Of a stretch of 64,000 nt of DNA, positions 8,043 through 60,885 are shown piece after piece; the stretch's first letter is position 1, and the number at the start of each line of letters is the position of its first letter. The notes below the pieces were generated by a model. The model had not been told where the DNA came from. It did not search any database and saw nothing but the letters and a program-made list of their open reading frames with translations. Origin of the DNA: Naegleria gruberi (lineage: Eukaryota); assembly GCA_000004985.1 (NCBI GenBank), contig GG738845.1; one strand, 5' to 3'. The translations under genes and the position numbers were made by a program.

Positions 8043-8170
8043 ATATGCATCACAAAAAACAAGCCATTTAGGATTAAATTAAAGAATTCAATTTAATGTA
8101 AGTGTGGAAGCAAAATTAACAAAAAACATTATGAAAATTTAAAAAGAATTCAAATTTACAAATAGTTAGC

Positions 8171-30500: not shown

Positions 30501-32594
30501 ACTCGTGACCCAAGCAATCCAAGTAATCCTGGAGGAGATGTTGTCTTGTCATGCACCAATCTTGACACTGCCACAACTTGTGATGGATTTTCAAATTCTG
30601 CAAGTAATATTAATCAAACTACTCGCAGTTTCAAACAAGGAATGCAACCAGGAACTTATATGTTCACAGCAACCTATACTAAGGGATCTAGAAAGTCTCA
30701 ATCTTCTGTAAAAGTCACACTTTTGGACAAACCAAAATCAACAATTATTAGAGTGTTAGTTTCCCCTCCTAGGAGTGCTGATTTGACAGCAGTTGATCCT
30801 TCTACTGAACTAGTTCTTCAAGCTACAACAATGGATACATTGAGTTCAGATAGAGTCTTTACTTGGAGCTCTCCTGATATTGACCTTACCTCAATTACCA
30901 CTTCCAACAAGTATATTGTAATTCCAAAGAGCTCTCTCGTTCCAGGAACTTCCAATACTGTTAAAGTTAAGATTGTAGATGGCACTAGATCTGGAGAGGC
31001 TGAAATTTCTTTCTCTGTTAACTCTCCTCCAACACAAGGTATTTTAGAAGTCACACCATCCACAGGTATTGCTTTATCTGATGAATTCCAAATTAAGTGT
31101 GGAAATGGTTGGTACGATGTTCAACTTCCTTTATCTTTCAAATTCATGTACAAGGAAGAAAATCAAACAAATTGGAAAACTCTATCAGAACAATCAGAGA
31201 AGAGATCCTTGGCAACATCCTTACCATTTGGTGTGTTGCAAATCAAAGCCATTGTTTACGACTCATTGGGAGCATCGACTGAAGCAATCACTACAGTAAC
31301 CACTATACTTCCAGATGCTGGAGCAGTCCTGAGCATTTTAACCTCACAACAAGGGACAGTCACTGTTTCAACACTTGCTTCTGCTCTCAGTGTTGTTGGA
31401 TCAGTTACGGGATTGACTACAGATCAAAAAGCAGCAATGCAAGAGGCCAGTAAGACTTTTGTTAACAAGTACTTTGAACAACAATCTCAAAAAGACAGTT
31501 TGCTTGAAGAATCATCTTCCTCTGCCTCATCTAAACTTTCAGTTATTTCTTCTATCAGTAATTTTGTAAAAAATCTCCCTGATGAGACTGTTTCAATGGT
31601 TATTCAAAAATTCTCTAAAACTATGGGTTCTGCTTCTACTAGTTCCTCAATTAGTATGGGTAGTGACGATATTTCCTCATCAACCAAGTCAGCAAACTCT
31701 CTCAGAGAACACGTTACTCAAAACATGGCTAAGAGATTTATTTCTTCCTTCACCAAGAATGATTTGAAGACGATTGACGATGTTTATGCCAGTCTTGTTA
31801 GCATTCAAGTTAAATCTTCTGTCGCTGATATGCCAGCCACTAGAGGAGAGGGTGTGGACTCAAACACTTATGCAAGACTTGTCAGTATTCCAACTTTGAA
31901 TGGATTGTCAGAATTGGTTAAGGATCAGGGTGTCTCTTCATTCAAACTTTCATCAACATTTGGTGATAATTCCAAGATTAAGAGTTTAGATAGTGTTAAA
32001 GTTTCAGCAAAGATTCGTCTATTAGATACTTCTTCTCTCAAAGCAGCCACCAAAGTGTTTGAATTGGGAATATCTGATAGTGGTAATAATATCATTGTAC
32101 AAAATAGCCAGTCTATTGCAACTTTGACCATCGAAAGAGTACCCAATGGAAGAAGATCTGTTATGGCTTCTGTACGAAAATGCTTCTCATTGCAAAATAA
32201 TGATTATGTACAAGATAGTACTTGTAGTATTTCTTCAGAAACCAATTCGAATATTGTCATTTCAGTCCAAAGCACTGGATCATATGTAGTTGTAGAACAA
32301 CCAGCTCCAACCAGTAGTTCAGTTCAGCCAACACCTTCTGTATCAGTTGTATCTCCAGCTCATTCAACTACAACTCCGCAAACCTCAACCACCACCACAA
32401 CTCCACAAACTTCTAAAGGCAGTACCAAGGTTCCAACAACAAGTGGACCAAATCTTGATTATATTGCTCTTATATTATTAATTATTCCAGTGGTACTTGT
32501 TGTAGTTGGTATTATTGGATTAACTGTTTGGTTAATGAAGAAGAAGAAGAACTCAAATAAGGATACTAACTTGGTTGAATTGAGAAGTGTTTAA
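24525..32594 (+). CDS. Giant (about 2630-2689 aa) type I membrane protein. It has dozens of EGF / laminin-type EGF repeats, a Ser/Thr-rich Ig/PKD-like region, a mucin-like stalk, one C-terminal TM helix and a short cytoplasmic tail. It is a probable adhesion or surface receptor.
   Basis: A single 8.07-kb intron-free ORF. A likely signal peptide starts at the internal ATG near 24707 (MRIRNYCFIVIALLLLCSGVILVRG). There are more than 30 CxCxxG(W/Y/F)xGxxC units, for example CKCDYGWEGAVC and CSCNQGFTGRNC. The C-terminus reads TTTPQTSTTTTTPQTS..LDYIALILLIIPVVLVVVGIIGLTVWLMKKKKNS. Confidence 0.8.
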   Translation: MKNVVSTANYKFRRYKMNFLLKNFQMRNDTTVFLQYSVVVCALRGCYPCESCKDSKQKNNNMRIRNYCFIVIALLLLCSGVILVRGLSCSKEEDCADSSGSCINGKCECWNNHKTGDYCDVCIRGYVGANCEDCAAGFTKDPQDGSTCLANCNPACYRGDCVGTNLCECNTGWDGATCNVCAKGYSGTDAFGNLLCDVKTCVPGCGYHGKCDVPPSTCKCDYGWEGAVCNIPQCYGNYACGNNSYCSSAFECSCVEGYNQTAAGCVPNVYNCPVPCGDHMKCNSSLLCACEQGYDSINGACYKTCPSNSVRSGTDCVCVAGYSLNNGVCEKECKDCTNGVCSNGVCTCNDGFEKKGEYCYKPCSVFTGTVGATCAIGGICKANGPFFSCSCSESGKEEFNGVCRTPCNPACGENTECNENSICQCKSTLDQDKYSFDNATRKCYPNCTKCKLEHQTCNNPDDANCFCDRVRGYLPIYDSNGVVISCEKPCNPACMGYSHCVNGDHCECDTGYTNYGNEYGCVKTCTSACIGLSWCSDAICYCPSGYQQHSNSTSIWCEPVCSTPCGANMECSAPDNCTCKAGYEVIGSECIKLCPSNSVRSGTDCVCVAGYSLNNGVCEKECSPECTNGVCSNGVCTCNDGFEKKGAYCYKPCSGFTGTVGAPCAAGGICKANGPFFSCSCSESGKEEFNGVCRTPCNPACGENAECNENSICQCKSNLDQAKYSFDNATRKCYPNCTKCKLEHQTCNNPDDANCFCDRVRGYLPIYDSNGVVISCEKPCNPACMGYSHCVNGDHCECDTGYTDYGNEYGCVKTCTSACIGLSWCSDAICYCPSGYQQHSNSTSIWCEPVCSTPCGINKQCSAPEECSCKIGFDDVKEVCVESCQVGYSRAEDDDKCYADCKVCGAHSSCYHSECVCDLGYQVDARGDCSSVVHDNSTGNTTAGNSSTSGGCDPICNPTTSSCLDGACICKDNLEMIGGECVHVCSLDCGIHGICQNTTGSATCNCTDFFEGMACSTCKSGFSLINDRCVCDDSSGRALVGENCICNSVASFKQVGTECVRSEPNCRYGCGNGLCRFVNNVTSDTECVCSAGFISTNQSNCNDCDSNQGLILSNGLCVCNVRLGFRLSTIDGKCKISTPICADKCGNGECQFVDSTTDLAECKCNVGYMTVRGSGKMCSECATGYSLSNGVCKLICPEEYSGDDCSTYTPTSACVNPPSNSLSFCKSVVSYQVKNTLYIQGAQSPSQAKEMFFTNMKSVDEAASNILSQVLNEFAKQNMSCDSNCIAVSTKSICYQYISSCSVDNSNVAVEKKLCKSVCNYILNNEVVTYPDVYANSCNRLPETNCFYGTYLPPATSCFGVPYLNSSVCSGKGRCVDTDSCSCNQGFTGRNCQLPFCFNIDSSDRLVCSSNGECVGVNKCNCKSGFTGKDCSIINCNGKSEAEGGCSFHGQCSAEHKCVCSGNFVGASCSECATGFTGVNCDIPICNGIKANDKTVCSSRGSCIVDGGEPKCSCSSGYSGTSCQNFKCNDIDRSSSDACSKHGKCIAQNTCVCAGNFDPLRYCSTCTPAFNGTDCTERICSDELTCSAHGKCNSNFKCDCQGNWVGDFCNQCKDGFVGTNCQFECSPSTKCSGRGSCNMDGTCQCTGNSIGKNCEQCATGWFGAKCDFSIDSTSFGFSSKGDSLYGTVYSNLKKKFACSDLVTTTDILGIGAVCVLNPEKSSMEIILGLSASVKIGSTLQFKKYFDSLETTQVTISTKDYVAVSPLANLISDKPSVSKACGKVYLDASSSVSIDRRTLLFSWSNILAPTTHDADTLNAFLSSVTSSGVYIGGADLSVGSYSVQVTVTSSFSLEKSTSTVSFDVSDLTSPTVAIKEGLESSIIIGKSSVITPTVTFPSCYKGEGPISYVYTLDTTKSINVDVKQKGELLIFNDDYTKITEEGDYYFILTTTQKGAADVKVPFKVTAKALPLVVSFSVRDMVQSFENDVTFTIITRDPSNPSNPGGDVVLSCTNLDTATTCDGFSNSASNINQTTRSFKQGMQPGTYMFTATYTKGSRKSQSSVKVTLLDKPKSTIIRVLVSPPRSADLTAVDPSTELVLQATTMDTLSSDRVFTWSSPDIDLTSITTSNKYIVIPKSSLVPGTSNTVKVKIVDGTRSGEAEISFSVNSPPTQGILEVTPSTGIALSDEFQIKCGNGWYDVQLPLSFKFMYKEENQTNWKTLSEQSEKRSLATSLPFGVLQIKAIVYDSLGASTEAITTVTTILPDAGAVLSILTSQQGTVTVSTLASALSVVGSVTGLTTDQKAAMQEASKTFVNKYFEQQSQKDSLLEESSSSASSKLSVISSISNFVKNLPDETVSMVIQKFSKTMGSASTSSSISMGSDDISSSTKSANSLREHVTQNMAKRFISSFTKNDLKTIDDVYASLVSIQVKSSVADMPATRGEGVDSNTYARLVSIPTLNGLSELVKDQGVSSFKLSSTFGDNSKIKSLDSVKVSAKIRLLDTSSLKAATKVFELGISDSGNNIIVQNSQSIATLTIERVPNGRRSVMASVRKCFSLQNNDYVQDSTCSISSETNSNIVISVQSTGSYVVVEQPAPTSSSVQPTPSVSVVSPAHSTTTPQTSTTTTTPQTSKGSTKVPTTSGPNLDYIALILLIIPVVLVVVGIIGLTVWLMKKKKNSNKDTNLVELRSV
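25437..27085 (+). repeat. Near-identical internal tandem duplication inside the EGF-repeat gene. Two units of about 782 nt (25437..26218 and 26304..27085) with an 867-nt period.
   Basis: tgtccttctaatagtgttagatctggaactgattgtgtttgtgttgcaggatattc recurs at 25437 and 26304. Identity stays above 95% through ..tggtgtgaacctgtttg(t/c)tc(a/c)actccatgtggt, apart from a 3-nt indel (KDCTNG versus SPECTNG). The encoded roughly 289-aa block (CPSNSVRSGTDCVCVAGYSLNNGVCEKEC...WCEPVCSTPCG) is repeated twice. Confidence 0.9.
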
Positions 32595-39317: not shown

Positions 39318-40961
39318 ATGAAAATTCAAAATTTTGCGATCATTGTGTTGACAACATTGTTGTTGTGTTGTTTTGTGTTTATTTGTTTCTTGATAAATGG
39401 ATATTCGAAATGTTTGAATCACCAGACAGGCATAATTAATCATGATGTGCACAAGTTGGCACTGATTGATTCCGATAGGGTGAGAGAAATTCCTCTCATC
39501 AACAAGAAGGTACCTCCTTCAGCTGTTATTCTCCCCAGAAATTTGCATCAACAGCTCCAACCAGTTCTTTCTATACCTCCCACAAAAATGACAAAGGAAC
39601 TCGAAATTGAACAAGAGGAAAAAACAATGGATGATTCGGAAAATATCATTGTTGCAAATCCAAATAAGTTTCCACCCAAACCATTACCAGACGAACCAAC
39701 ATTGCAAGGTAATCCCAACGAAACCAGTAATCCATTATGTGTAGATAAACGAAAGAGAGATTACAAACAGGTACCAATCAGAGTATCAGGACTTTTTAAT
39801 GGGGAATTTAGAGATTGTAGCATTAGGTGTGTTGGAGATGGCTATCCAAATCAACCAAGTTTACCTGATGTGTATGTGGGACGAGATGCTCCTCCTGATG
39901 GCTGTCCAAACTCTTTTTCCTTCATTTCTACAATGGAAAATCAACCAATGTTCAAGACCAATATCCACAGTTTAGTAGGTACGACTAATTTAAAAACTGA
40001 CGTTCCAGTTCAATATTTTAGTTGGGCTGAATATAGTTACATGAGCAAACCAAAACCAAAAACAGCAACTGCAATGATGGCGGTTTTCATTTCAAATTGT
40101 GGACCACCAAAACGATTGGAAATCATCAAGGAATTGGAGGAACACGGAGTTACAATCCATTCATATGGTAAATGTTTGCACAACACACAAATGCCAGATA
40201 CAAGAGATGGTGACTATTTGGGAATTAAAACTCGGATTACCTCCACTTACAAATTCGTATTTGCAGCTGAAAATTCAGAAACTGACGATTATGTCACTGA
40301 GAAACTTTTTGGAACATTTGATTCTGGAAGTGTTCCAGTTTATTTGGGAGCTCCAAATGTTAAAAAGTTTGCCCCAAGTGAAAAATCCGTCATTTCAGTT
40401 TCTGATTTTGCGACCATTAAGGAATTAGCAGAATATTTGAAAATGTTAGATAAGGATGATGTAAAATACAATGAATATTTGAAATGGAAGGAAGAAGGAC
40501 CATCACATGATTTTATTGCCATGATGGATATGGCTATTATACACTCTTCATGCAGATTGTGCATCAAAGTTGCAGATCACTACAGAAAGATTTACAACAA
40601 CCAGGTTGGAAATCAAATAATTCCAAAAGATAAACTTGGAAAGGACAGCATTATTGTGAGCGTTAGACCAAGAGGAGAATTCTACATGAAACAAGTTGAA
40701 CTATTACCAAATGAAATGAGTCTCAAACATCTCAAGAGAAAGATACAGAAATTGTATGCTGATAATCCTCTTCCTGTCGGATCTATTCACTCCATTTACA
40801 GATTATGGGACAATAACAAGATACCAATCAAGGATGAAGACTTTAGAAATGGTATTATTCACAATAGTATTGAGTTGGAGGTTATATTCCTTTATCCTTA
40901 TCATCCAGGAAGAGGAAAATTCAATGAGTGGCAACAAACTCACAAATTCTACCTTCATTAA
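39318..40961 (+). CDS. Alpha-1,3/4-fucosyltransferase (CAZy GT10), type II membrane protein. Paralog A of a tandem pair.
   Basis: An N-terminal signal-anchor (IIVLTTLLLCCFVFICFLINGY). The catalytic region has the GT10 motifs FVFAAENSETDDYVTEKLF (FxFENS...DYxTEK) and VPVYLGAP. A conserved extra C-terminal region of about 120 aa is shared with paralog B. Confidence 0.75.
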   Translation: MKIQNFAIIVLTTLLLCCFVFICFLINGYSKCLNHQTGIINHDVHKLALIDSDRVREIPLINKKVPPSAVILPRNLHQQLQPVLSIPPTKMTKELEIEQEEKTMDDSENIIVANPNKFPPKPLPDEPTLQGNPNETSNPLCVDKRKRDYKQVPIRVSGLFNGEFRDCSIRCVGDGYPNQPSLPDVYVGRDAPPDGCPNSFSFISTMENQPMFKTNIHSLVGTTNLKTDVPVQYFSWAEYSYMSKPKPKTATAMMAVFISNCGPPKRLEIIKELEEHGVTIHSYGKCLHNTQMPDTRDGDYLGIKTRITSTYKFVFAAENSETDDYVTEKLFGTFDSGSVPVYLGAPNVKKFAPSEKSVISVSDFATIKELAEYLKMLDKDDVKYNEYLKWKEEGPSHDFIAMMDMAIIHSSCRLCIKVADHYRKIYNNQVGNQIIPKDKLGKDSIIVSVRPRGEFYMKQVELLPNEMSLKHLKRKIQKLYADNPLPVGSIHSIYRLWDNNKIPIKDEDFRNGIIHNSIELEVIFLYPYHPGRGKFNEWQQTHKFYLH

Positions 40962-41088
40962 CTTGTGGTAAAGTTTGGAAAACCACACTTGATATAGATG
41001 TAGGTTCAGCTCAGTGTAATAATTTTAAAAAGTGCAACAACACCAAAAATTCATCCCTGCATTTTCCTCTAAAAATTATTCTGCTCCT

Positions 41089-42795
41089 ATGAAAACTCTA
41101 CAAATTATAACAATAGTACAGACGGCCCTGTTATTGTGCTGCTTTGTTGTTATAACCATCCTAATTAACAAATATTCTCTCCTTGTAAAGGAAATTAATA
41201 GTTCAAAATTACATCAATATTCTTCCCTAAATCTAAATTTGATTAAGCTTACATCACCACCCGAGACAACAATAACATCTTCCATTGTGATAAAACCACA
41301 AAAAACCTCATCACAACAACCTCCGATTAGAGAGCAATCGCCCATTGCACCATCGTCACCTGTACTCACACCTACAACAAAAGTTAATGATAAGGAGGAT
41401 CCAATAGACAAGACTCGAACCAAACTTACGACTTTGAACCTCAGTAGGAGGGAAAAACTATTGAGGGATAAGCAAAATGGATCAAACAAATCGGTCAGTC
41501 ACAACACTGAAGTGACATCCATTGAAAATCAAGACAAGCAGGTATATCAGATACCTCTTAACGGTGGAAGGGAATTAGCCAATTGCCCAGATAACGAGAA
41601 TAGAGATTATAACGAAAATCCAATTAAGGTCAGAGGTAAATTTACAGGCGAGTTGACCAATTGTCCAATAAGATGTGTTGGAGAGGCAAACCCACCAGAT
41701 GTGTTTTCTGGGAGAGATTCACCTAGTGGTGGTTGTCCACACGCATTTTCGTATCAATTTACCATGGAAAATATTAAATTGAGAAAGGCATCCACCCATA
41801 GTTTAATAGGTACAACTGATTTATCTTCAGATGTTCCAGTTCAATATTTTAGCTGGGCTGAATATAGTTATATGGACCCACCAAAGAATAAGACAGCAAC
41901 TGCAATGATGGCGGTTTTCATTTCAAATTGTGGACCACCAAAACGATTGAATATCATCAAGGAATTGGAGGAACATGGAGTTACAATCCATTCATATGGT
42001 AAATGTTTGCACAACACACAAATGCCAGATACAAGAGATGGTGACTATTTGGGCATCAAGACAAGATTAACTTCGACATACAAATTCGTATTTGCAGCTG
42101 AAAATTCAGAAACTGACGATTATGTCACTGAAAAATTGTTCGGAACATTTGACTCTGGAAGTGTTCCAGTTTATTTGGGAGCTCCAAATGTTAAAAAATT
42201 CTTACCACACGAGAAGTCAATTATTTCAGTTTCTGATTTTGCAACCATTAAGGAATTAGCAGAATATTTGAAAATGTTAGATAAGGATGATGAAAAATAC
42301 AATGAATATTTGAAATGGAAGGAAGAAGGACCATCACATGATTTTATTGCCATGATGGATCTGTCAATTTTGCACTCTTCATGCAGATTGTGCATAAAGG
42401 TGGCTGACTATCACAGAAAGATTTACAACAACCAAATCGGTCACCAGCTCATTCCTAAGGAAGACCTCAAAGAAGGTAGTATAGTGGTGAATGTTAGACC
42501 AAGAGGAGAATTCTACATGAGACAGATCGAATTATTACCAAATGAAATGAGTCTAAGACAGCTCAAAAAAAAGATACAAACACTCTATGCCAAAGAAGAA
42601 GCAACACTGGGATCTATTTACTCCATTTACAGATTATGGGATAAGAACAAGACACCAATTCAGGACAAGGATATGAGAAATGGTGTAATTTACAACAATG
42701 TAGATCTGGAAATCATCTTCCTCTATCCATATCACAAAGGTAGAGGAAAATTCAATGAGTGGCAACAAACTCACAACACCTTTAACCTACATTAA
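41089..42795 (+). CDS. Alpha-1,3/4-fucosyltransferase (CAZy GT10), paralog B. Its P/S/T-rich stem is longer than in A.
   Basis: The same motifs as paralog A. The nucleotide sequence of the catalytic core is nearly identical to paralog A, for example acagcaactgcaatgatggcggttttcatttcaaattgtggaccaccaaaacgattg in both. The track start at 41032 is a GTG, so I re-called the start to ATG 41089 (MKTLQIITIVQTALLLCCFVVITILINKY), which parallels the paralog A start. Confidence 0.75.
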   Translation: MKTLQIITIVQTALLLCCFVVITILINKYSLLVKEINSSKLHQYSSLNLNLIKLTSPPETTITSSIVIKPQKTSSQQPPIREQSPIAPSSPVLTPTTKVNDKEDPIDKTRTKLTTLNLSRREKLLRDKQNGSNKSVSHNTEVTSIENQDKQVYQIPLNGGRELANCPDNENRDYNENPIKVRGKFTGELTNCPIRCVGEANPPDVFSGRDSPSGGCPHAFSYQFTMENIKLRKASTHSLIGTTDLSSDVPVQYFSWAEYSYMDPPKNKTATAMMAVFISNCGPPKRLNIIKELEEHGVTIHSYGKCLHNTQMPDTRDGDYLGIKTRLTSTYKFVFAAENSETDDYVTEKLFGTFDSGSVPVYLGAPNVKKFLPHEKSIISVSDFATIKELAEYLKMLDKDDEKYNEYLKWKEEGPSHDFIAMMDLSILHSSCRLCIKVADYHRKIYNNQIGHQLIPKEDLKEGSIVVNVRPRGEFYMRQIELLPNEMSLRQLKKKIQTLYAKEEATLGSIYSIYRLWDKNKTPIQDKDMRNGVIYNNVDLEIIFLYPYHKGRGKFNEWQQTHNTFNLH

Positions 42796-43716: not shown

Positions 43717-46700
43717 TTAAATTCTGTTATTTCTCATGAGGGATTGGTAATTGAAAGAGGTTGGGGATGGAGATTCAGTATTATTGACATCAGAGTGTAA
43801 GGAAACCAAAGATAAATCCAATGGAAGAGCAGCTTTTGGATCTCTTTCCAAGTTTTGTGGAATTTTGTGGAAACCAAACTTTTTAGCCAAATCAGTTGGG
43901 TGTTGAGGAGGATTTAAGAAACCACACTTGCACAAGAAGCAATAGTAAGTGGTCATCAATTCAATAACCTTTGGACAAGTAACATTGGAATTTTCCAAAC
44001 CTTCCAAAGTGTGAGTGTTATCATACCATGGACGCTTGGCAGTCATCTTCAAGTCATAATCATCAGTGAAATAGGTTACCAATGGATACAATACATTTTC
44101 TTCAACAACCTTTCCAGTTTCAGTTTCAGCACTTTTATCTCTATTAACAGTAGCTTGATATAACTTTTCCTTCCATTCCTTGAATGGCAATGGCTTGATA
44201 CTGTAACCAAGCTTGTTACCACATTCGAATAATGAATTGAAGAAGAATTCGTGAGGATTGACCAAGTGATAAGCTTGATGTTTAACAACAGAGTCCATAG
44301 TTCTTGACAAGTGAACAATGGCACCAGAAATGAAATCAACAGGAGACATATCCAACTTGGAGAGTGGCATATCTGGATAGTAACCCATTTGGATACAACC
44401 CTTAATCATACGACACAAGAAGTCATCTGGATTCCAGACACCAGTCTTGGCGTGACCTGTAATATAACCTGGTCTGTAGATACAAACTGGTAAACCTCTC
44501 ATACGAGCATTCATGCACAACTTTTCAGCAACATACTTGGATTGTGGATAACCAGTCAAATCTTCGTGATATGGAAGTGTGGAATCTTCATAGACATCAG
44601 TGAATTCCTTATATTGTTCAGAGTCAAAAACAGATGTTGTGGAAACATAGTGAACTGGAGTCAACTTTTGACCAGCACAAGCCATCTTTAAAATTTCACG
44701 AGTACCATTAACGTTGGAGGCCTTCAACTTGTCATAACTGTAGAGCCAATGGACAGCGGCACCATTGTGAACAATGATATCAATAATGTTGGTCATTTCT
44801 TCAAACTTGTTTTCATTCAAACCCAACAATGGTTTAGTCAAATCTCCCAAAACTGGAATAATTCTCATTTCAACAACTTGAGCCAAGTTATTTCTGTTAA
44901 TAGAGTTGACAGAGTCCATTTCTTCTTCTTGATCCATTTCCTTAGAAGTCCACAAGAAGTGATATGACAAGAGGGATTCCAAAATACGTTTTCTGGCCTT
45001 TTCTTCATTTTCAGCTCTAACCAAACAGTAAATCTTGGCAGTTGACTTCTTCAAAAAGTCAGCCAACAAGAATGTACCCAAGAAACCAGTACATCCAGTA
45101 ATCAAAATGTTCTTTGGATTTTGCCAAACCTTGGAATAGGAAATGAAATCGTTAAAGTTCAATTGATGTTGAGGTCTGATAAATGCTTCCAAGTGAGTAT
45201 CCATAGAAACATCTTGAATCAAGTGTTGATTTTTGGTTTGACCACTTCTCAATTGTTCAATAGCAACAGCGAGAGCAGAGATGGTTGGAGCTCTGAACAA
45301 TAATTCAACTGGGAGTTTTTGAGCACCTTCAACTTGATTTCTGATCAACAAGGTCAATGTTGTAGCATTGATAGAGTGACCACCCAAATCAAAGAAGTTA
45401 TCATGGATACCAATGTTATCAGTGTTACCACGTGATAAAACATCAGCCCAAATTTGTTGTAATTGCTTTTCCAAATCATTTCTTGGAGCAACATATCCTT
45501 CTTCATCACCAGAATCCAAAGATGGCATGTGAATTGGATTTGGTAAATCTTGTTTTTTGATTTTACCGTTTGGAGTCAATGGAATCTTTTCCAATGGAAC
45601 AAAGTATGAAGGAATCATATAATCTGGTAATCTGGTTCTGATGTGTTGTCTCAAATCCTTAATGATGGTCTTGATTATACTAGATTCCATATAATTTCCA
45701 TTCTTGGCGTTGAGGGTAGAATTCTTTTCTAATTCAACCTTATCCAAAACAAAGTATGTAACAATACGCTTTTCATTTTGAATGCAATCTTCTCTGACAA
45801 TGGTAACACTTTCCTTAACAAATTCGTGAGAGTTCAGACAGGTGTTAATTTCACCCAATTCAATTCTGAAACCTCTAATCTTAATTTGGTCATCAGCTCT
45901 ACCACTGCATTCAGCATCACCACTAATTAAATATCTACCCAAGTCACCAGTTCTGTACATTCTATCCACATAACCACTGGTCATGAATGGATTTGGAATG
46001 AACTTTTCACGAGTATCCTTTTCCTTACCCTTATAACCTTGAGAAAGATGAGGAGATCTCATGTAAATTTCACCCATTTCACCAATACCTGACAACATGA
46101 ATTTGTTATCACGAGAAGTGAATCTGCTCAATGTCAATGCTTGAACATCTTGCATACCTCTACCGATTGGTAAAATATCCTTCAATTGTTCGAAAGGAAT
46201 ACCAGTTTCAATACACTTTTCACCTGGACGTGGGACCATATAGTAGGTAACAGAACGTTGAGTTTCAGTTGATCCATACAAGTTGATAACCTTAACGATT
46301 GGTGCAATGTCACACAATCTCTTAACGAATTTCTTAGACAAGACATCACCAACAAAGAATGCATATCTCAAATGATTCAATTGGAACAATTGAGATGATG
46401 TGTTAATGACAGATGCAGCAGTAGCCAACAATTGACCCATTGGTGGAGTCAAACAACAAACTGTAATCTTCTTTTCTTCGAACCATTCAGCAAGACGACC
46501 TGGATTGACAATATCTTCATTAGATGGAATATACATGGTACATCCCAAGAACCATGGAGTAAAAATGTCACGTTGCAAAGGATCGTGAGAAATACCAGAT
46601 TGCATTGAGAATCTGTCATTTTCACTAAAGCCAAAATATTGTTTCATCCATGGATAATAGTGAGTGAGAGGACCGTGTCTTCCCAAAACACCCTTTGGAA

Positions 46701-48126
46701 TACCAGTACTTCCTGATGTATAGGTGCAAACAGCAAAGTCATCTTGTGTAATTTTAACATTCAAAGTTGGATCTTCACTCAAATTGGAATCGTTATAATC
46801 AGAGTAGACATTCTCATTAAGAATATCAGTCATGGATTTCAATACTGTTACAAACTTGGTCTTTTCATTGATAAAATCAATGACAGACTTTGGTAATTGA
46901 CCAGCAGCTTCAATTAAAATAACTGCAGATGGTGTTGAAACTTCCAAACAAGTGATAATTCTGTCGGCTGGATAAGCAGGATCTAACATGTTAAAAATTG
47001 CACCACATTTCAATGTAGACAAGATGGCCAACACAACTGGACAAGATCTGTGACCAAAGATTGTCACAACCTCCTGTCTCTTCAATCCCTTATGAAGTAA
47101 GTGTCTTGATAACTGATTGGAAACTCGATTCAATTGTTCAAAGGTAACACTTTCATGATTATCAACCATGGTAATTCTATCTGGTGTTTGTTTAGCCTGT
47201 TCTTGGAAAATTTCATGAATTGGACCAATGAAATCGTTATTCAAAGCTTTATCAGGGTGTGGTAAAACCTTCTTGGCATATTCAGTCACCAAACTGATAT
47301 CATAAATAGAGACATTGCAATTACTCGACAATACTTGTTCAGAAACTAATTTCAATTGATTCAATAATTCAGCCATTCTCAATTCTGTGAACAAGTTATT
47401 TTGATAAATGATACTGAGTTCGTTAGATTGAGTATTGTAGTGTAAATTTAAATCAACATTAGAAATAGGGAATGGTTTGTCCACCTTAGTGAATGGACCG
47501 GCATAGGAACTATAAGAAACTTGAACGAGTAAATTTGTATCAATATTACCAGCATTAGCATTGTTAGACAAAAATTGTTCGAGAATATTCTTTACATTAT
47601 TGAAATATGATAAATGATTCAATGAATCATTGTATGATTGTTGAATATTGGAAAGTAACTTTTTAAAACTATACTTTTCAGTAGCATCACTTTGTGAAAT
47701 ACCTTCAAATGTATCTTCTTCATTGGAAGGCATTGGAATATTGGCTGACAAGATGAATGAATCCTTTTCTTCATTACAATCTTGCAATACACCAATTAAA
47801 AAGGTTTCTTCATATGTATATCTACATAATAATACAACAAATAAGGAGAGAATGAATGAATTCTTAGTAAATAATTGTTGTGCCTCTGAATCTCCATTCT
47901 TGATAAACAGTTCTCTAAATTTGCTACTATTCAACACTTGTTCCATTGAAATGGTATATTCTAATGGTTTATACTCAACTTGGGTAGTAGAGGTAGTAGA
48001 AGTTGATGAAGCTGCTTCATCATTTAACATAACTCTAGGATAATCAGTTGGCAATTTCAAACTTTGATTTTGACTCAACAATTGTGACCAAAACGACAAT
48101 TGTTTTTCCTTCAACAATGAGGCCAT
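43717..48126 (-). CDS. LYS2: L-2-aminoadipate reductase (Lys2-type, A-T-R architecture)
   Basis: Homology to S. cerevisiae Lys2 runs across the whole protein. [96 protein letters not shown] aligns with Lys2 [132 protein letters not shown] aligns with Lys2 [37 protein letters not shown]. The PCP motif is [11 protein letters not shown]. The reductase domain has [17 protein letters not shown] and [10 protein letters not shown] (YxxxK). The track N-terminus starts at a GTG; the first ATG is at 48126 (MASLLKEK...). Confidence 0.85.
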   Translation of the reverse strand: [1469 protein letters not shown]

Positions 48127-48670
48127 GATGCAATTAAAGTGATGATGATTTGAAAAATGTAAATTTACAATGATACTCGAAAGTAGTAACACACTAGTTA
48201 ACTAGTAGTAGGGGAAGGGGAATATGTGTGCAAGTAGCAGAGCAGCAGCAGCAACAGAGAGAACAATTGAATGAATAGAAACAACACAGTCTTGTTGTAG
48301 AGTTGTTTTTTTCGCTCTTTTTCGTGGTGCATCTCCACAGAGACCAAAAGTAAAACGCGAGAGGTGAATCCACATTTTAAATATCAAGCCATTTGAATTT
48401 ATTTGGCGATTTTTCCTCTAGGGATTTTGGGTCATTTCAATTAAAATTCAGCGAATATGTTTAAATTTTCCACTGTGTTGCACTACAATTTACAATGGTG
48501 ATGATGTGTTTGTTGAGGAGAAATTTATAGAAGTTTAAAAGTTGTTTTAAAATTATTGAAAATACATGTATTTCATAGTATTCAATGAATGAAGGCACAG
48601 AGGAAGGATGGGAGAAATGAGGAGTAACAACATTTATGTGACCTCAAATTTACAACACACTTCAAATAAC

Positions 48671-50417: not shown

Positions 50418-52217
50418 TTATAATTTAGATTGAATTACATTCAAACTTCTTCTTAGTTGAATATCATCTCTTCTATTCAAAACAACAACACTAACCCTAT
50501 CCAGCTCAGGAGACACCTCCAAATGGATATGATCATTCTCCGCAAACAAGTGATCAGAAGCTGCCAGTGGCGTAAGAATATGATTTTCTAACACACCTGT
50601 AACAGTAAGGGAAGGTCTATATCTCTTCATGAGCCATATCACAACATCCTCACTCCATGTCATTTTGAATCTTTTTTGAGTAAAGGCAAATGTTGAAAAG
50701 ACATTCAATTGTGTCACAATTTGATTACAAAGCTCAATATCTGAGAAGGCAAAGAATGGTATAATAGCATTAAATTGATGGAGGAATGCATCAAAGCATT
50801 TTGGTTGTTTGCTTTCTTCTGTCGATTTGTTAGAATTATTCAAATGATCGACCAGTATTGGTGTGATTTGATGTCTAAATTCAATCACTCTATCTAAGGC
50901 ATCAATGGTTGAGTATGAAGAAGTAACTTGGTCAACAAACTTTGAAGAAGGTGGAGGAGGTGCAACCTTTGTACGATTCATTCTTCGTTTAAAATCATAA
51001 TCATAGGCATCCTCATTCTCGTAACCTTCAAATCCATTATCCCAATTACCTATTGTCTTTTTCTCCTTTTCGTATTTCTCTATTAAATTATTTGGTCCAC
51101 TCTCCAGAATATTCTTTTTCACAACTTGGTCACTTATTACAGAAATGCAAATAAATATGGCCTGGCTGGCATCTATTATTTTCACCAAATCATCCTCGTT
51201 ATCTTTCTTCTTTTCTTTTTTCCCAGGTTCTAGTGAGGATGATTGCTTTCTCGTTTTTTGCTCTAGAATAATGCCAGATCTGAAGAGTTGATGTAAAAAT
51301 CTGAATACAGATGGATGGGCACTCTCCATATTATTGAATACAATTACAGCATTTGGAGTGGTCTCTAGAATGACATTTAATTGACCTAGCATGTAATTGA
51401 AAGGTTCAGAATATCTATACTCATCAGAAAATTGTACAAGATTTGATAAATCTTCCTCCTCGGTAAAATAGCTCATATCTAAGAGTACAAATGGTCTGCT
51501 TTGTGATTGGGCAATGAGTTTTGACAGATAAATTTTTCCACATCCAACAGGTCCAATTAAGAACAAAGAGAGTGGTATCTTTGTTTGCTTCCTTATCTGA
51601 TGATTATCTTCCATATTTGAAATGAATTGATTTTCATTCGTGAGTTGATGATAAGAGTAGGACCATATTGTAGACTGACGAAGTAAGCAGAAACAAACTG
51701 TCTTGATGGCAATTTCCTGATTCACCAAACACTTATTTAAATAATTTTCCAACTGTAAGAGTGGAACAGTCTTTCTCTGCACACCCTTCTTTCCGCCGCT
51801 CATAATTGGTCTATCAAATCTTTCAATAATAAAAGGTGGTCTTATTTGGTGGTTATTGTCTCCCAAATAATCAAATTTGTTAGAGGCTTCGACTGGAACT
51901 GAATTCGATGCTGCCGAAGAAAATAAATTCCAATATTGATGTTGGAATAACATGTTGGTAGCCTTGTCCTTTAATTCTTGAAAAACTCGCATAAATCCAC
52001 CATTTGAATGTGTTGTTTCCTCTTGTTGATCAATGATGAGATTTTCATTCCGATATTTATCAGTTGTGTTTTCTAATGATGCCTTCACATTGGCTGCTGA
52101 TGATGAGGAATTAATTAATTTACTCTGTGTTGTTGTCATATTGTTTTGGTTTGATTGTCCTTGTGAAGGAAGATTTGATGATGAGGGTTGTTTATTTCCT
52201 ATCGTTAAATTGGACAT
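50418..52217 (-). CDS. ClpB/Hsp104 D2-like AAA+ protein with a degenerate active site, a probable pseudo-ATPase. It has a low-complexity N-terminal region.
   Basis: LLQLENYLNKCLVNQEIAIKTVCFCLL..PLSLFLIGPVGCGKIYLSKLIAQSQ..RPFVLLDMSYFTEEEDLSNLVQ..VIVFNNMESAHPSVFRFLHQLFRSGIILEQKTRK parallels ClpB NBD2 (LLxLEEELHxRVVGQDEAVxAV..GSFLFLGPTGVGKTELAKALA..RIDMSEYMEKH..VILFDEIEKAHPDVFNxLLQVLDDGRLTDGQGRTV). The Walker A Lys is retained but GKT becomes GKI. The Walker B hhhhDE becomes VIVFNN. The sensor/GQ motif reads VNQ instead of VGQ. Confidence 0.55.
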   Translation of the reverse strand: MSNLTIGNKQPSSSNLPSQGQSNQNNMTTTQSKLINSSSSAANVKASLENTTDKYRNENLIIDQQEETTHSNGGFMRVFQELKDKATNMLFQHQYWNLFSSAASNSVPVEASNKFDYLGDNNHQIRPPFIIERFDRPIMSGGKKGVQRKTVPLLQLENYLNKCLVNQEIAIKTVCFCLLRQSTIWSYSYHQLTNENQFISNMEDNHQIRKQTKIPLSLFLIGPVGCGKIYLSKLIAQSQSRPFVLLDMSYFTEEEDLSNLVQFSDEYRYSEPFNYMLGQLNVILETTPNAVIVFNNMESAHPSVFRFLHQLFRSGIILEQKTRKQSSSLEPGKKEKKKDNEDDLVKIIDASQAIFICISVISDQVVKKNILESGPNNLIEKYEKEKKTIGNWDNGFEGYENEDAYDYDFKRRMNRTKVAPPPPSSKFVDQVTSSYSTIDALDRVIEFRHQITPILVDHLNNSNKSTEESKQPKCFDAFLHQFNAIIPFFAFSDIELCNQIVTQLNVFSTFAFTQKRFKMTWSEDVVIWLMKRYRPSLTVTGVLENHILTPLAASDHLFAENDHIHLEVSPELDRVSVVVLNRRDDIQLRRSLNVIQSKL

Positions 52218-55829: not shown

Positions 55830-58800
55830 ATGCAAACACTACCAAGAGATAACACTCCTGAAAGTGCAATGAATCACATTATGCAGGTTGGTAATGCATC
55901 ATCAAGATTACTTGGTTGTTCCACCTCAAAGAGGATCTCCTCCACACTAGCCGCATCACTCTGTATGATTGTTGCAGTGGTATGCTTTAGTTCAATCATG
56001 ATGATCTCATCTAGCTTTAGCTTTGTAGAGGGACAACAACAACCACAACTCAAAGTCTGTATCAATCAAACATCTACATGGAAGCAAGACATCTGTAGTA
56101 CCAATATTACAATGACCTATCCTAGTTATTGTCATTATCAAAATCCGTACATTGTTCCCTATCCTCTAGGTTACAAATTATTCAATGATTCCACTATTGA
56201 TTTGCAAACATGTTTAGATAAGAATGGAAATCCACAAGATGAATGGTCTGATGAATGCTACTTCCTCAATTCTTTAAATATCATAGAGTTGGAGGGTTTC
56301 TCCACAGGTAATCAATCCTCTCGTTACATTCTATTTGCTACTAATAGAGGCCAATTATTTGGATCCAATTTCAATGATGGAAACGTGTTGCTTCCTCTCA
56401 TGGGAGATAACAATCACTTTGAACCAATTACAAAGGTTGTGAGCGTTCCTTTCAAGGAAGGAAAGGGTGTTTACGTCATTGGTAAAGCAAAACAACACTC
56501 TATCATGTATTATTATTCGCAATTGGATGTAACTTTTCGTCCATGCACCAATTTTAATTTACTAACCAATGCAGATATTGTTTATAGTGAAATTTTATAT
56601 ATGGAAGATCAGGGAGAAATATTCTTACTTTTAATTGGTGAGGAAACAATCTTCTTTTCAAAACTTGGAGCATTGTGCAATATTGTAGAAAAGATTTATA
56701 CTTATCAATTCACTAGTGAAAAGATTGTTAATGTTCAAGTTCATACTCAATATTATAACATTTCTAAACCGACAGCATCCATCTATATTAAGGATGATCA
56801 TCCATACAGAAATTTAATTAGTATTCAAACTAGCAAGTCTCTCTATTTGATTCCTTTCGAGAGAGGTGATAAGGTTATAAGTGGTAATTCTGCTGGATAC
56901 AATCTAATTTATAGAGTTGGATCTTTGGATGAAAAAACTACCATAAGTGGATATACTTTATTCAAGGAGGAAATTATTAAGGCAACTGGTGGAGAATGTT
57001 CTTCATCGGCTCCAGAATATTATCAAGCTCTCTATATTGGAGTTGCTACTTTTAACTCTCAAACTGGATCTTCCAAGATGACTTTGAGAAATTTGAACAG
57101 TTGGGGTTATGAAAGAAGTGATAATACTGTATGTGACGTGACCATTGGTGAATATCCAATCGATGGAAAGTGTGTCAAAGCATTTGAACATGTGCAAACA
57201 CTTCCATACAAGGTCACTCATATCAAATCAACATTTGTTGATCTTCCAGTTGAAGTAAGGGATCAAATTATGGGAATTACAGCTCAATATGTTACCAATA
57301 CCCAAGCAGCTATTCAATCAGTTGGCCCCATGTGTGAACAAATGGCTGGTGTTTCAACTCTCCTAAATAAGGGATCTGATTACATGACCAATTACAAGGC
57401 TTGTTTAGCAACTTTCCAAGCAGTAATTGAAGGAGCTGGACAATGTTCAACCCTTCTGGATATTATTCCACCAGATACTGTGAGAGAAATGATGCTTTAC
57501 CACTGGGTTCACAACATTTTCATCACCATGGAAGATAATTCTCTCATTATTTTTGGTGCTCAAGCTCGTGCATGTCAATCATCTGTTGAAAGAAGTCTAG
57601 TTGTCCGTGAGTACAATCAATTCAAACTTGTTGGAAGACCTTTGGAGTTGGGTATTTCACCAAATGGTCAACACATCTTCCTTACCTTAACAAGAAAGAA
57701 GTGGGAAATTGACGCCTTAATTCGTTATCATGCCATTTGTGAAACTCTGAAAAAGGATGAGAAAAATATATTCTTTAGTTCATTTGCTGATACATGTAAG
57801 GAAAATCCACCAACTGAACCAAATATTGGTTTATTTGGTTTCTCACTTAGTTATTGTATGCCTGGTTTATACTGTCCTAATGTTAAGGAAACAGTCATTA
57901 CAAAACTAGATAATGGTTACTATACTGAAAGACCTAATTATGCCATGCTTTGTCCAAAAGGCAATTTTTGTAAGTTTCTTCTAATAGCTTTTGTTTTACT
58001 CTTTTGATGTTAATAGGTACAAACGGTGTCAAGATGCTTTGTCCACCAGGATTCTATTGTGATGAAGAGGGGTTGGAAGCTCCAAAACGTTGTACTGATA
58101 ATAATTACAATTGTTTCAAGAGTGGTTTACAACAAGAAAATAACGTGCCAGACAAGGGAACTTTAACATTGACTCCTTACTATCCAACCATTCCAATTTC
58201 AGATGGTTTATTCATTATGAGAAGGGATGCCATCCATTATTCAGTTGCAGAATGTAAGAAAGGTGAATACTGTCCATTAGCAAGAGAACTTCAATTTAAC
58301 TCAACTGAGGATTTTAACACTACCAGAAAGAGTTTGAATTGTCCTGATAATACTTTTTGTACAGATTCCCGCATCATTACTCCAACTATTTGTAAATGCA
58401 ATTTTAGTTATTGTAGTTATTGTGTTGATGGAGCAAGTCAGGAAATTGCCTGTCCAGCAGGTTTTTACTGCACCTCTCCAGCAACAAAGAAAGCATGTAC
58501 AAGTGGTCAATATTGCCCTGAAGGAAGTGTCATTCCTCAAGTGTGTCCTGCTGGATATTATTGTGCAAATCCTTCTTCTTTGTCAACTTGTCCTTCTGGA
58601 CATTATTGTCCAACAGGAAGCATTATTCCAAGAGCATGTAGTTTCCTTTCAATTTGTTCAACCAATCAAGAACATGAGGCTTTCAACATTTTGGGATTCC
58701 TCTTTGTTTTTATTTGTTCTTTAATTGTCATTGTAATCTTTTATGCTATCAGACTTGGAAGAAAGTTATGGAATAATTATATTGATAAGAAGAGATCAAT

Positions 58801-60885
58801 TATTCAAACACCAACTTCTCAAAGAGAATTGATGGAACCAGGTGACAAAAAGCCTGCAGGTGTTTCCATTGTCTTTGATAAGCTTTGTTATCATGTGAAT
58901 GGCAAATCAATCCTTAATGATGTGACAGGTGTAATTCCTCCATCTAGATTGACTGCAATCATGGGACCTAGTGGTTGTGGTAAGACAACATTACTTTCCA
59001 TTTTGGCAGGAAGAGTTTATGAAGGTTCAATCAATGGTACCATTAAGATTAATAATACTATTGATTCATTCGCAAATTTGAAAAAGATTACAGGATTTGT
59101 TCCACAAAATGATATCATGCATCCAAATTTAACAGTTAAGGAAACTATTCATTTTGCAGCCAAGACTAAATTGGACTTTAGATTGGCCGCTAAACAAGTA
59201 ACTTCAATTATTAGTAATGTTATTGAAACTCTTGGTCTTGGTCATATTAAACACTCAATTATTGGTGATGAAAAGCAGAGAGGTATTTCAGGAGGTCAAA
59301 AGAAACGTGTTAACATTGGTATTGAATTGGCAGCTGATCCAAAAGTTTTGTTTTTGGATGAACCTACTTCTGGTTTAGATTCAGTCTCAAGTAAGGAAGT
59401 TATGTTTGCCCTTAATAGAATTGCTACTGAACAAAATGTTACCGTTGCAGCAGTTATTCACCAGCCTAGAACTGAAATATTCGAAATGTTCCATAATGTA
59501 ATTTTATTGGAAACTGGTGGTAGATTAGTTTATAATGGACCAAGCGCAAATGCATTGCCATATTTTGAAAAGTTAGGTTACAAAGCAGATGCAAAAGTTA
59601 ATCCAGCTGATTTCATTCTCGATGTTACCTCTGGTCAAGTTCATAATGATAACAAATATATTGCCTCAAGTTTATCTCAAGTTTGGGAGAAACATAGTTC
59701 TACAAGTTATTTCAAAGTCAATCAGAAAGAACTCTTGGAATGTTCTGATTATGAAGAAATTAAGAGGGAAAATTCAAGAAGAACAACTCTTATCACAAGT
59801 CAATTATGGTTATGTTTGAGAAGAACTTTGATTCAATTCACAAGAAGTGTTTTTGATTTCTTATTGGGTGTCTCTTTGGTGTATATTGGTGGTCTTGCAT
59901 GTGGTATAATCTTTGTAGATGGTTTGCATTACAGAGGACCTCCACACGAAGAAATTATCAAATTATGTCCAGAACCATTAAGATTGAAATGTTCAATGCC
60001 CCTCGATGATCCAATCATTTCTATGGCACAAATCATTCCATTGGGTATGGCATTGTGTGGTGTGATGAGTTCTTTGAGTATTTTCGGTGATGAATTGGTT
60101 GTTTTCAAGAGAGAATATGCAAGTGGATTGTCAACCTTAATGTACTTTATTGCAAAGAATATTGTTCACATTCCTTATATTTTGATTTATCCAGCCATTT
60201 ATACGTCCATCTTTTATATTCTTGCCAATCCATTAGGATCTTTCTGGGAATAGTAAGTAGTACAATTAGTGATCTTGTAATTAATATTGAAAATGATAGT
60301 TATGGATATTTAATTTTAGTTTATAATGTTGCTGTTGGTTTTGGTTATTTGCTTTCCATTCTATTGCGACCATCTGTCAGTAAATTGGCAGGTGTAGTTG
60401 TTGTAATTATCATGACCATGTTAGCAGGCCTTAGACCAACAATTCCTCAAATGAATGACATGTTCTTCCCAATGAATATTCTCCACTGGATTTCCTTCTT
60501 GAGATATTCACAAGAAATTGTTTATCTAATTGAACTTGAAAAGTTTACTCAAATTTTCAATGTTCAAACAAGTTTAGACATTTTTGGATACCAGTTTGGA
60601 AATTGGTGGTCAGGTGTAGCATTGATTTGTTATGCAATTGCTTTGAGAATTCTCGCCTATTTGGCTTTATTATATGTTCCAGATACTGTTTTCATAAAGA
60701 GAGGATTCAGATGGCTCATTAATAGAAGAGTTATTATCAAGAATTGGATTGCTCAAAAGAAGGCAAACAGAAAACCAAAGGAATTTCTTGTTGACTCCTC
60801 ACCTTCAACACCTGTTAACCTAAGTAACGAGAATCTATTAGGAGGAGAAGAACAATCACCATATTATAGAGTTTCAGACATTTAA
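55830..60885 (+). CDS. ABCG-family half transporter (nucleotide-binding domain then transmembrane domain, abbreviated NBD-TMD below) fused to a large N-terminal extracellular region. The ectodomain is a roughly 700-aa unknown domain plus GCC2/GCC3-like CxxGxYC cysteine repeats, then one TM helix before the NBD. Three exons, about 1654 aa, with introns at about 57970..58016 (47 nt) and 60253..60299 (47 nt).
   Basis: Exon 1: ATG with aaaaaaaATG context, an N-terminal hydrophobic segment (LAASLCMIVAVVCFSSIMMISSSFSFVEG), then a long Cys-containing ectodomain. The donor TG|GTAAGT and acceptor TTAATAG| join in frame to exon 2 (..KGNFC|TNGVKMLCPPGFYCDEEG). Exon 2 has repeats CPPGFYC / CPAGFYC / CPEGSVIPQVCPAGYYC / CPSGHYCPTGS and the TM helix ILGFLFVFICSLIVIVIFYAI. 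Then come the ABC NBD motifs: Walker A GPSGCGKTTLLSILAGR, Q-loop, signature ISGGQKKRVNIGIEL, Walker B KVLFLDEPTSGLD, H-loop AVIHQPR. Exon 3 follows a GTAAGTAG..ATGATAG| intron and adds further TM helices (VGFGYLLSILLRP.., VVVVIIMTMLAGL.., WSGVALICYAIALRILAYLALLYV). Confidence 0.75.

Follow-up and report, generated by a model that had tools for sequence, protein, structure and literature searches.

What can an AAA+ protein still do for the cell once the residues that drive its motor have been replaced, and in which compartment would it do so? The question is raised by one gene of Naegleria gruberi, located on the minus strand at positions 50418-52217 of a 64,000-nucleotide stretch of contig GG738845.1 (assembly GCA_000004985.1), the whole of which is referred to here as the window; its DNA is AT-rich (GC ~33%) and eukaryotic. 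The gene is a single uninterrupted open reading frame (ORF) that extends from ATG to stop over 599 codons, and the deduced protein of 599 amino acids is 100% identical to the NCBI model XP_002683585.1 (EFC50841.1, D2UYT2, NAEGRDRAFT_45254), annotated as 'predicted protein [Naegleria gruberi]'. An initial annotation made from the letters of the window had described it as a probable pseudo-ATPase related to the second nucleotide-binding domain (NBD2 or D2) of ClpB. We describe below the fold of this protein, the loss of its catalytic site throughout a family of relatives, and a conserved C-terminal peroxisomal targeting signal, a feature absent from that annotation and, on the evidence of the sequences, the most informative clue to the site of action.

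ClpB-NBD2/Skd3-like fold

The proposed collinearity with the second nucleotide-binding domain of ClpB/Hsp104 was borne out by Pfam, phmmer, profile, hhalign and predicted-structure comparisons, all of which agree, and the similarity is well beyond what chance would give. The Pfam domain AAA_2 matches residues 217-364 with 37.2 bits, against a cut-off of 27. In a phmmer comparison with PDB sequences human CLPB/Skd3 (E 7e-11) ranks first, ahead of ClpC and ClpB NBD2, and a profile of five orthologues again finds Skd3 (E 4e-22), with ClpC and ClpB at E 6e-15. An hhalign comparison of the profile of the 17-member family described below with an ankyrin-Skd3-type protein has a probability of 99.8% (E 1e-27) over 317 columns, which cover both the large and the small domain. 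The motif strings expected from this collinearity are in place, namely LVNQ (residues 164-167), GPVGCGKI (222-229), the DMSEY-like LLDMSYF (245-251) and AVIVFNN (290-296).

For the structural comparison we used an AlphaFold2 model based on a 36-sequence alignment; a model based on a 5-sequence alignment had a predicted local distance difference test score (pLDDT) of 41 and was set aside. Residues 141-599 are modelled with pLDDT 79.3 and a predicted template modelling score (pTM) of 0.65. A Foldseek search with the predicted model places Skd3 structures at the top (E 1.7e-20, ~440 columns) and NBD2 of Thermus thermophilus ClpB next. The large alpha/beta domain and the small helical C-terminal domain of the ClpB-D2 fold are therefore recovered by profile as well as by predicted structure, so that the outcome that would have refuted the initial annotation did not arise, and on this combined evidence the fold is that of a ClpB-NBD2/Skd3-like AAA+ protein of the HCLR clade.

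The NCBIfam ClpA and ClpB models cover residues 213-324 only, with 33-36 bits against equivalog cut-offs of 993-1232, and Pfam ClpB_D2-small has no match at E <= 1, although the C-terminal small domain is collinear with it. As the initial annotation had noted, a D1 domain is absent according to the Pfam scan, which detected no ankyrin repeats either, and the N-terminal region is of low complexity, residues 1-140 being rich in Ser (14%), Asn (13%) and Gln (8%). Neither ankyrin repeats (Pfam scan, E <= 1) nor a hydrophobic anchor (hydropathy) was found in these 140 residues. A single AAA+ module is thus present, lacking the N-domain, NBD1 and middle domain of the two-ring Clp/Hsp100 proteins.

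Loss of the catalytic site

The proposed inactivation was originally read from two motifs, Walker A (GKT to GKI) and Walker B (hhhhDE to VIVFNN), together with the change of VGQ to VNQ, the last of which is seen as LVNQ at the place where ClpB has VGQ. Examination of a multiple alignment of the family with 19 active relatives, in which each motif column was counted over the members that include the respective region, revealed the Walker substitutions in all relatives and, in the N. gruberi protein, the additional loss of sensor-1, Arg finger and sensor-2.

The Walker A motif is GKT in 19/19 active relatives, but GK[I/L/V] in 11/12 family members and GRI in the remaining one (environmental protein P0013). 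In the N. gruberi protein Lys228 is kept and Ile229 replaces the Mg2+-coordinating Thr (T388 of Skd3). The Walker B pair is DE in 19/19 active relatives; the 16/16 family members that cover it have NN, NH, NQ or HH instead, with N295-N296 of the N. gruberi protein at the position of Skd3 D454-E455. The sensor-1 residue (Skd3 N496) is Asn in 19/19 active relatives, whereas most family members have Asp and the Naegleria/Willaertia clade has Val or Ala (V360 in N. gruberi); this position lies 64 residues beyond the Walker B Glu position in the N. gruberi protein, compared with exactly 41 in the active relatives. The Arg finger (Skd3 R561), likewise Arg in 19/19 active relatives, shows more diversity: it is Arg in 9/17 and Lys in 1/17 family members, Gln in N. 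gruberi (Gln481), N. fowleri, N. lovaniensis and Willaertia, and Ala, Ser or Thr in the clade of P0013, P0017 and P0022. Nearby residues Pro487, Phe489 and Phe491 are invariant across the family.

The initial annotation had also counted the sensor-2 region among the collinear segments. Collinearity holds for this region, but sensor-2 itself does not: its Arg (Skd3 R620), present as GAR, GVR or GGR in 19/19 active relatives, is deleted together with the GAR motif throughout the family. The pore loop, GY[V/I]G in 19/19 active relatives, is not conserved in the family. Tyr267 of the N. gruberi protein does align with Skd3 Y430, but without the Gly context; a Tyr is found here only in Naegleria/Willaertia, and in other clades the loop is deleted or variable.

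Mutational data are available for many of these positions in human Skd3. Its ATPase is abolished by K387A and E455Q, and disaggregation is abolished by Y430A (PMC7343390). The nucleotide-pocket mutations T388K, N496K, R561G and R620C cause disease, and the last three diminish the ATPase and severely impair the disaggregase activity (PMC9584538).

Both residues for Mg2+ coordination (Walker A Thr and Walker B Asp) are therefore replaced in the N. gruberi protein, as are both water-activating residues (Walker B Glu and sensor-1 Asn), and the gamma-phosphate contacts made by the Arg finger and the sensor-2 Arg are replaced or deleted. The joint loss of all these positions leaves no possibility of an ATP-driven unfoldase, and the comparison supports the assignment of the protein as a putative pseudo-ATPase of ClpB-D2 type.

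Conservation and selective constraint

A profile was run exhaustively against 1.84 billion representative proteins to gather the family, which has 17 members, from Naegleria, Willaertia, Acrasis and environmental eukaryotes. Its named members include proteins of N. fowleri, N. lovaniensis, Willaertia magna and Acrasis kona, and ~12 are environmental sequences. Two contigs of environmental members (L004 and L005) carry clearly eukaryotic genes, among them IFT121, ribosomal protein L21e and a Prp19-like WD40 protein, and the genes of a third (L002), for a furin-type protease and a CRT-like transporter, suggest a eukaryote. The L21e protein of L005 has 52-54% identity to those of Acrasis and N. 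fowleri, and its best match (82%) is a EukProt sequence. On the same contig the family gene is split into two overlapping ORFs, 5800-6087 (the N-terminal part, with the QEIAIK helix) and 6080-6943 (with a start ahead of the P-loop). The split points to a short intron, to a frameshift or to an error of assembly; the called 287-residue protein is truncated.

The dead Walker A and B motifs are common to all 17 relatives wherever the region is present, which answers the earlier proposal to look for the substitutions in orthologues. Selection was assessed by codon alignment of the orthologues from N. fowleri (locus L007) and N. lovaniensis (locus L008), for which the ratio of nonsynonymous to synonymous substitution rates (dN/dS) is 0.126 overall, with dS 0.90. 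By region, dN/dS is 0.32 in the N-terminal part, 0.052 in the large AAA domain, 0.115 in the insertion and 0.023 in the C-terminal domain, so that selection is strongest in the small lid domain and next strongest in the core of the large domain. A decaying pseudogene is ruled out by the intact ORF in four named species and by these ratios (0.13 overall, down to 0.02). Strong purifying selection combined with family-wide dead motifs identifies a pseudo-ATPase rather than a gene in decay: the protein is a strongly constrained pseudoenzyme, and its dead state is a trait of the family.

A conserved C-terminal peroxisomal targeting signal

The tripeptide SKL is the canonical peroxisomal targeting signal of type 1 (PTS1), which is recognised by the receptor Pex5. 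The N. gruberi protein has -SKL directly before the stop codon, in agreement with the pattern [SAC]-[KRH]-[LM]. Most family members end alike, with S-[K/R]-L in 14/17 and one case each of -SNL and -SSL, which gives S-x-L in 16/17; the remaining protein, P0020, ends in -SKK. In C-terminally anchored columns the entropy is 0 bits at position -3, where the serine is invariant, 0.95 bits at -2 and 0.32 bits at -1, whereas it rises to 2.3-3.5 bits at -4 and from -6 to -12; position -5, a conserved hydrophobic residue, is intermediate (1.45 bits). A terminal tripeptide of near-zero entropy beside variable flanks points to a targeting signal rather than to an element of the fold. Disorder is predicted for residues 597-599 (pLDDT < 50 in the AlphaFold2 model), so that the tail is probably exposed. 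Such a signal could be read in Naegleria, where PEX5 is present, peroxisomes are visible by morphology and the predicted PTS1s of N. gruberi are 'predominantly -SKL' (PMC7549135).

Outside the family an SKL-like end occurs in only 4 of 159 other ClpB-like proteins, all of them in one small bacterial-looking clade. These proteins, P0071, P0120/P0175 and P0155, have a single ClpB-NBD2 ring in which GKT and DE are intact, and their tails are -SKL or -ARL. P0175, a cluster mate of P0120, is encoded at positions 8001-9095 of locus L003 on a gene-dense, bacterial-looking metagenomic contig of 49 kb. Intracellular bacteria could use them as effectors directed at the peroxisomes of a host, or their tails could be coincidental. 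As an active eukaryotic peroxisomal paralogue that might be the partner or ancestor of the dead family, this group was rejected, since P0071, P0120 and P0155 branch with bacterial tandem-NBD2 proteins, apart from the dead family.

A literature search on the accessions of the gene, on peroxisomal ClpB/Hsp104-like proteins and on ClpB/Skd3 in Naegleria returned nothing relevant. We also considered a link to the heterolobosean mitochondrial type II secretion system and the associated 'Gcp' peroxisome pathway, but found nothing in favour of it: no Gcp protein is described as AAA-like or Clp-like, the terms AAA and Clp are absent from the main text of that study (PMC8134430), and the accession does not occur in the part of its supplements covered here.

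Phylogenetic position

The initial annotation had mentioned a Skd3-like derivative as one possibility, and kinship with Skd3 is what the comparisons indicate. Skd3 is the best match by sequence and by profile, and a neighbour-joining (NJ) tree of 186 NBD2-type domains (284 columns, Kimura distances, 50 bootstraps) groups the dead family, itself monophyletic in 50/50 bootstraps, with a 43-member clade of single-ring proteins as an exclusive group in 40/50. N-terminal ankyrin repeats were found in 6/7 tested members of this clade (P0123 has no Ank matches), which identifies it as Skd3/ANKCLP-type. Proteins named as Mytilus and as the fungus Dimargaris belong to it. The latter, P0176 (Dimargaris verticillata, KAJ1973087.1), combines ankyrin repeats with a Skd3-type NBD and ClpB_D2-small and lies outside Holozoa; it may be a contamination. 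ANKCLP has been described as an invention of stem holozoans (PMC4339202; PMC7343390).

The spacing of the motifs is similar in the two groups. The spacer between sensor-1 and the Arg finger counts 121 residues in the N. gruberi protein and 54-150 in the family, whereas Skd3-like proteins have 67-106 residues here and two-ring Clps 33-49; the Skd3-specific insertion L507-I534 is placed between the same two motifs (PMC9584538). By position the insertions of the family may correspond to that of Skd3, but their sequences have no recognisable homology. The NJ grouping is suggestive of Skd3-type proteins as the closest active kin of the dead family.

Elsewhere in the collected set, P0018, P0019, P0023, P0025 and P0031 contain two or three tandem active copies of ClpB-NBD2 and no NBD1, some of them with N-termini that resemble signal peptides. 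A tandem NBD2-only architecture is unusual among Clp/Hsp100 proteins.

Possible functional role

We consider it probable that the N. gruberi protein is a catalytically dead single-ring AAA+ module of the ClpB-NBD2/Skd3 lineage, imported by means of its SKL into the peroxisomal matrix, where it would serve as a binding or scaffold protein independent of ATP hydrolysis. The matrix is the most likely location and this is the most likely mode of action as far as sequence analysis can indicate. After synthesis in the cytosol, the protein would be recognised by Pex5 through its SKL and would enter the matrix in the folded state. With neither ATP hydrolysis nor a conserved pore loop, it would be unlikely to thread substrates. 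Neighbouring subunits of AAA+ proteins touch each other through the lid domain and the first helices; since these inter-subunit parts are the best conserved and the motor parts are gone, an oligomeric binding platform that does not thread is suggested. Such a nucleotide-independent or non-hydrolysing oligomer would hold or organise its partners, as a holdase, an adaptor or an assembly factor for peroxisomal proteins.

Several points weigh against this proposal. The conserved glycines of the P-loop and Lys228 keep nucleotide binding possible, and no partner protein is known. The suggested sister relationship to Skd3 comes from a simple NJ analysis with long branches. XP_002683585.1 is absent from the part of the N. 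gruberi mitochondrial/peroxisomal proteome covered here (Supplementary Data 2 of PMC8134430). Finally, three divergent members, P0005, P0015 and the L005 gene, join an SKL/SRL tail with an N-terminal hydrophobic segment (residues 9-25, residues 2-18 and within ORF 5800-6087, respectively; 17-residue Kyte-Doolittle means of 1.74-1.89), which is at odds with a simple soluble matrix protein.

This last combination leads to the alternative that the protein does not reside in the peroxisomal matrix at all, the SKL being retained as a structural C-terminus, or tethering a cytosolic or membrane-anchored protein to Pex5, or serving the piggy-back import of a partner. The deviating -SKK tail of P0020 would also fit. 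We nevertheless regard this as very unlikely, given a terminal tripeptide of near-zero entropy with variable flanks in a tail that is predicted to be disordered, and given that hydropathy analysis found no hydrophobic anchor in the Naegleria, Willaertia and Acrasis proteins. A different objection starts from the nucleotide pocket. The protein could bind a nucleotide without hydrolysing it, as NSF-D2, p97-D1 and Pex1/Pex6-D1 do, and thereby form a switch or a structural ring in which the P-loop ligand stabilises the oligomer or signals the metabolic state. Retention of the GxxGxGK P-loop backbone in 11/12 members and of the Arg finger in about half of the family agrees with such a function, and the change of DE to NN, NH or NQ resembles engineered 'trap' mutants such as the ATPase-abolishing E455Q of Skd3 (PMC7343390). 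The replacement of both Mg2+ ligands, however, together with the Arg that P0013 has for the P-loop Lys, indicates weak or no binding of Mg-ATP, and sensor-2 is gone as well; a nucleotide-gated role of this kind therefore appears rather improbable.

The initial annotation had suggested that the protein could be a regulatory or adaptor subunit comparable to LAP1 and LULL1, whose AAA+-like folds are dead and which serve torsin as partners in the endoplasmic reticulum (ER) and the nuclear envelope. By analogy, the dead module could be a non-catalytic partner that regulates an active AAA+ ring, for instance peroxisomal Lon or another Clp-type protein, and in some species donates an Arg finger to it. 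The retention of Arg at the position of Skd3 R561 in 9/17 members (and of Lys in one more), despite their own dead sites, is what one would expect of such a donor, and within the protein conservation is highest in the inter-subunit lid domain. Gln481 at this position disfavours the idea for Naegleria; the Arg has been lost both in Naegleria/Willaertia and in the clade of P0013, P0017 and P0022, so that Arg donation is not the conserved function. Moreover, the only active SKL-ending relatives that were found are the bacterial-looking proteins that branch elsewhere in the tree. We thus see little likelihood of a LAP1/LULL1-like partnership.

A scaffold acting in the matrix without ATP hydrolysis therefore remains our preferred interpretation. 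A bolder version of it, unlikely though worth stating, is that the family represents a kind of peroxisomal matrix factor not recognised before, in which a dead Skd3-type module makes up an ATP-independent ring or scaffold that helps to handle imported proteins as a holdase, as an assembly or cargo-release factor, or as an adaptor for piggy-back import. To our knowledge, neither Pex13 nor Pex14 is detectable in this lineage.

Implications

Little is understood of how the peroxisome deals with proteins that are misfolded or have just been imported. Apart from Lon protease, we know of no HCLR-clade (Clp/Hsp100-type) AAA+ protein inside peroxisomes, nor are we aware of a description of a non-catalytic peroxisomal helper in the ClpB/Skd3 family. 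A conserved, PTS1-tagged and hydrolysis-dead relative of ClpB and Skd3 is thus a testable candidate for a non-enzymatic peroxisomal chaperone or adaptor, and the family offers a natural experiment on the uses of the AAA+ fold after removal of its motor. The proposed kinship with Skd3 would place single-ring modules of Skd3 type outside animals and their nearest relatives as well, and it bears on the origin of human CLPB; if it is true, the single-ring ClpB-NBD2 lineage predates Holozoa and has been sent to different organelles in different eukaryotes. Among human proteins there is no close counterpart with this set of features, and the protein also occurs in N. fowleri, a pathogen.

Features of the gene and its genomic neighbourhood

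The features of the gene are collected in Table 1.

Table 1. Layout of the pseudo-ATPase gene of N. gruberi (positions are those of the window)
Feature	Position	Strand	Basis
Complete single-exon coding sequence, 599 aa plus stop codon (50418-50420)	50418-52217	-	ORF list; identity to NCBI model
N-terminal region, residues 1-140, low complexity, poorly conserved	51798-52217	-	Composition, alignments, dN/dS 0.32, low pLDDT
First AAA+ helices, residues 156-185 (LENYLNKCLVNQEIAIKTVCFCLLRQSTIW); VNQ where active Clp proteins have VGQ	51663-51752	-	Alignments; strongly conserved in family
Degenerate Walker A/P-loop GPVGCGKI, residues 222-229	51531-51554	-	Motif columns vs 19 active relatives
Pore-loop equivalent, residues 261-280 (VQFSDEYRYSEPFNYMLGQL), GYVG gone	51378-51437	-	Motif columns
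Degenerate Walker B AVIVFNNMESAHPSVF, residues 290-305	51303-51350	-	Motif columns
Lys/Glu-rich insertion of variable length, residues 319-346, between Walker B helix and sensor-1 strand	51180-51263	-	Spacing, composition, low pLDDT
Sensor-1 strand AIFICISVIS, residues 353-362	51132-51161	-	Motif columns
Long insertion, helical and disordered, residues 363-471, separating sensor-1 from Arg-finger position	50805-51131	-	Spacing
Arg-finger region PKCFDAFLHQFNAIIPFFAF, residues 472-491	50745-50804	-	Alignments, motif columns
C-terminal small (lid) domain, residues 492-585, ClpB_D2-small equivalent (TWSEDVVIWLMKRYRPS...LENHILTPLA)	50463-50744	-	Alignments, dN/dS 0.023, hhalign and Foldseek coverage
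Family-specific C-terminal helix ending in PTS1 Ser597-Lys598-Leu599 (50421-50429)	50421-50462	-	Tail entropy, pLDDT

The neighbours of the gene in N. gruberi are ordinary and unrelated (a Lys2-like reductase, Sec10, fucosyltransferases and an ABC transporter), and neither N. fowleri nor N. lovaniensis has them beside its orthologue. In the latter two species (N. fowleri L007 5111-7498, N. lovaniensis L008 4988-7726) an acetyl-CoA synthetase-like gene adjoins the orthologue and a BTB protein is encoded on the other side. Since the neighbours in N. gruberi are different, the local gene order is not conserved.

Several other genes of the window deserve mention. A minus-strand ORF of 1491 codons (43717-48192) contains the AMP-binding, PP-binding and NAD_binding_4 domains, an architecture characteristic of Lys2-type alpha-aminoadipate reductases or of carboxylic acid reductases. 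Two adjacent paralogous genes for GT10 fucosyltransferases (39318-40961 and 41032-42795, both on the plus strand) appear to have arisen by tandem duplication. Also on the plus strand, an ORF for a 725-aa protein without a Pfam match (55830-58007) overlaps by 4 nt with an ORF for a 749-aa ABC-G-type transporter (58004-60253); the pair (55830-60253) may be one gene with a frame change or a short intron, or two tightly packed genes. A further plus-strand ORF (24525-32594) encodes 2689 residues with teneurin-type epidermal growth factor (EGF) repeats and a REJ domain, resembling the extracellular architecture of polycystin-1.

Comparison with known AAA+ systems

Pseudoenzymes of the AAA+ type are a known kind of protein; what would be new for this clade is the predicted compartment. 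The nearest counterpart is Skd3 (human CLPB, ANKCLP), the disaggregase of the mitochondrial intermembrane space, which likewise consists of a single ClpB-NBD2-type AAA+ module followed by a small domain and has a long insertion (PMC9584538) in the spacer between sensor-1 and the Arg finger, which is also expanded in the dead family. Unlike Skd3, the dead family has no ankyrin repeats and has lost the ATPase motifs and the GYVG pore loop. Skd3 is mitochondrial, whereas the dead family ends in a PTS1 and the N. gruberi protein has no apparent mitochondrial presequence: residues 1-40 include two basic and no acidic residues along with many Ser, Asn and Gln, and contain no hydrophobic stretch by hydropathy. 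The distributions differ as well, the dead family being found in heteroloboseans and other protists, and ANKCLP being described from the holozoan stem (PMC4339202). What sets the protein apart from ClpB, Hsp104 and Hsp78 is its single ring, together with the absence of their catalytic residues and pore loop.

Torsins are also HCLR-clade AAA+ proteins with a non-canonical Walker A motif and no aromatic pore loop, and some members of the dead family share with torsinA an N-terminal hydrophobic segment or keep the Arg finger. The Naegleria protein differs from torsin in having no Arg finger and in its predicted compartment, the peroxisome instead of the ER lumen. Membership in the torsin family itself was rejected: there is no match to Pfam Torsin, and hhalign to an approximate torsinA query gives 69% over 64 columns around the P-loop only. 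Finally, Pex1/Pex6 (D1), NSF (D2) and chloroplast FtsHi provide degenerate rings with structural roles. These come from other AAA+ clades and occur either fused to an active ring or assembled together with one, whereas here the dead module constitutes the whole protein.

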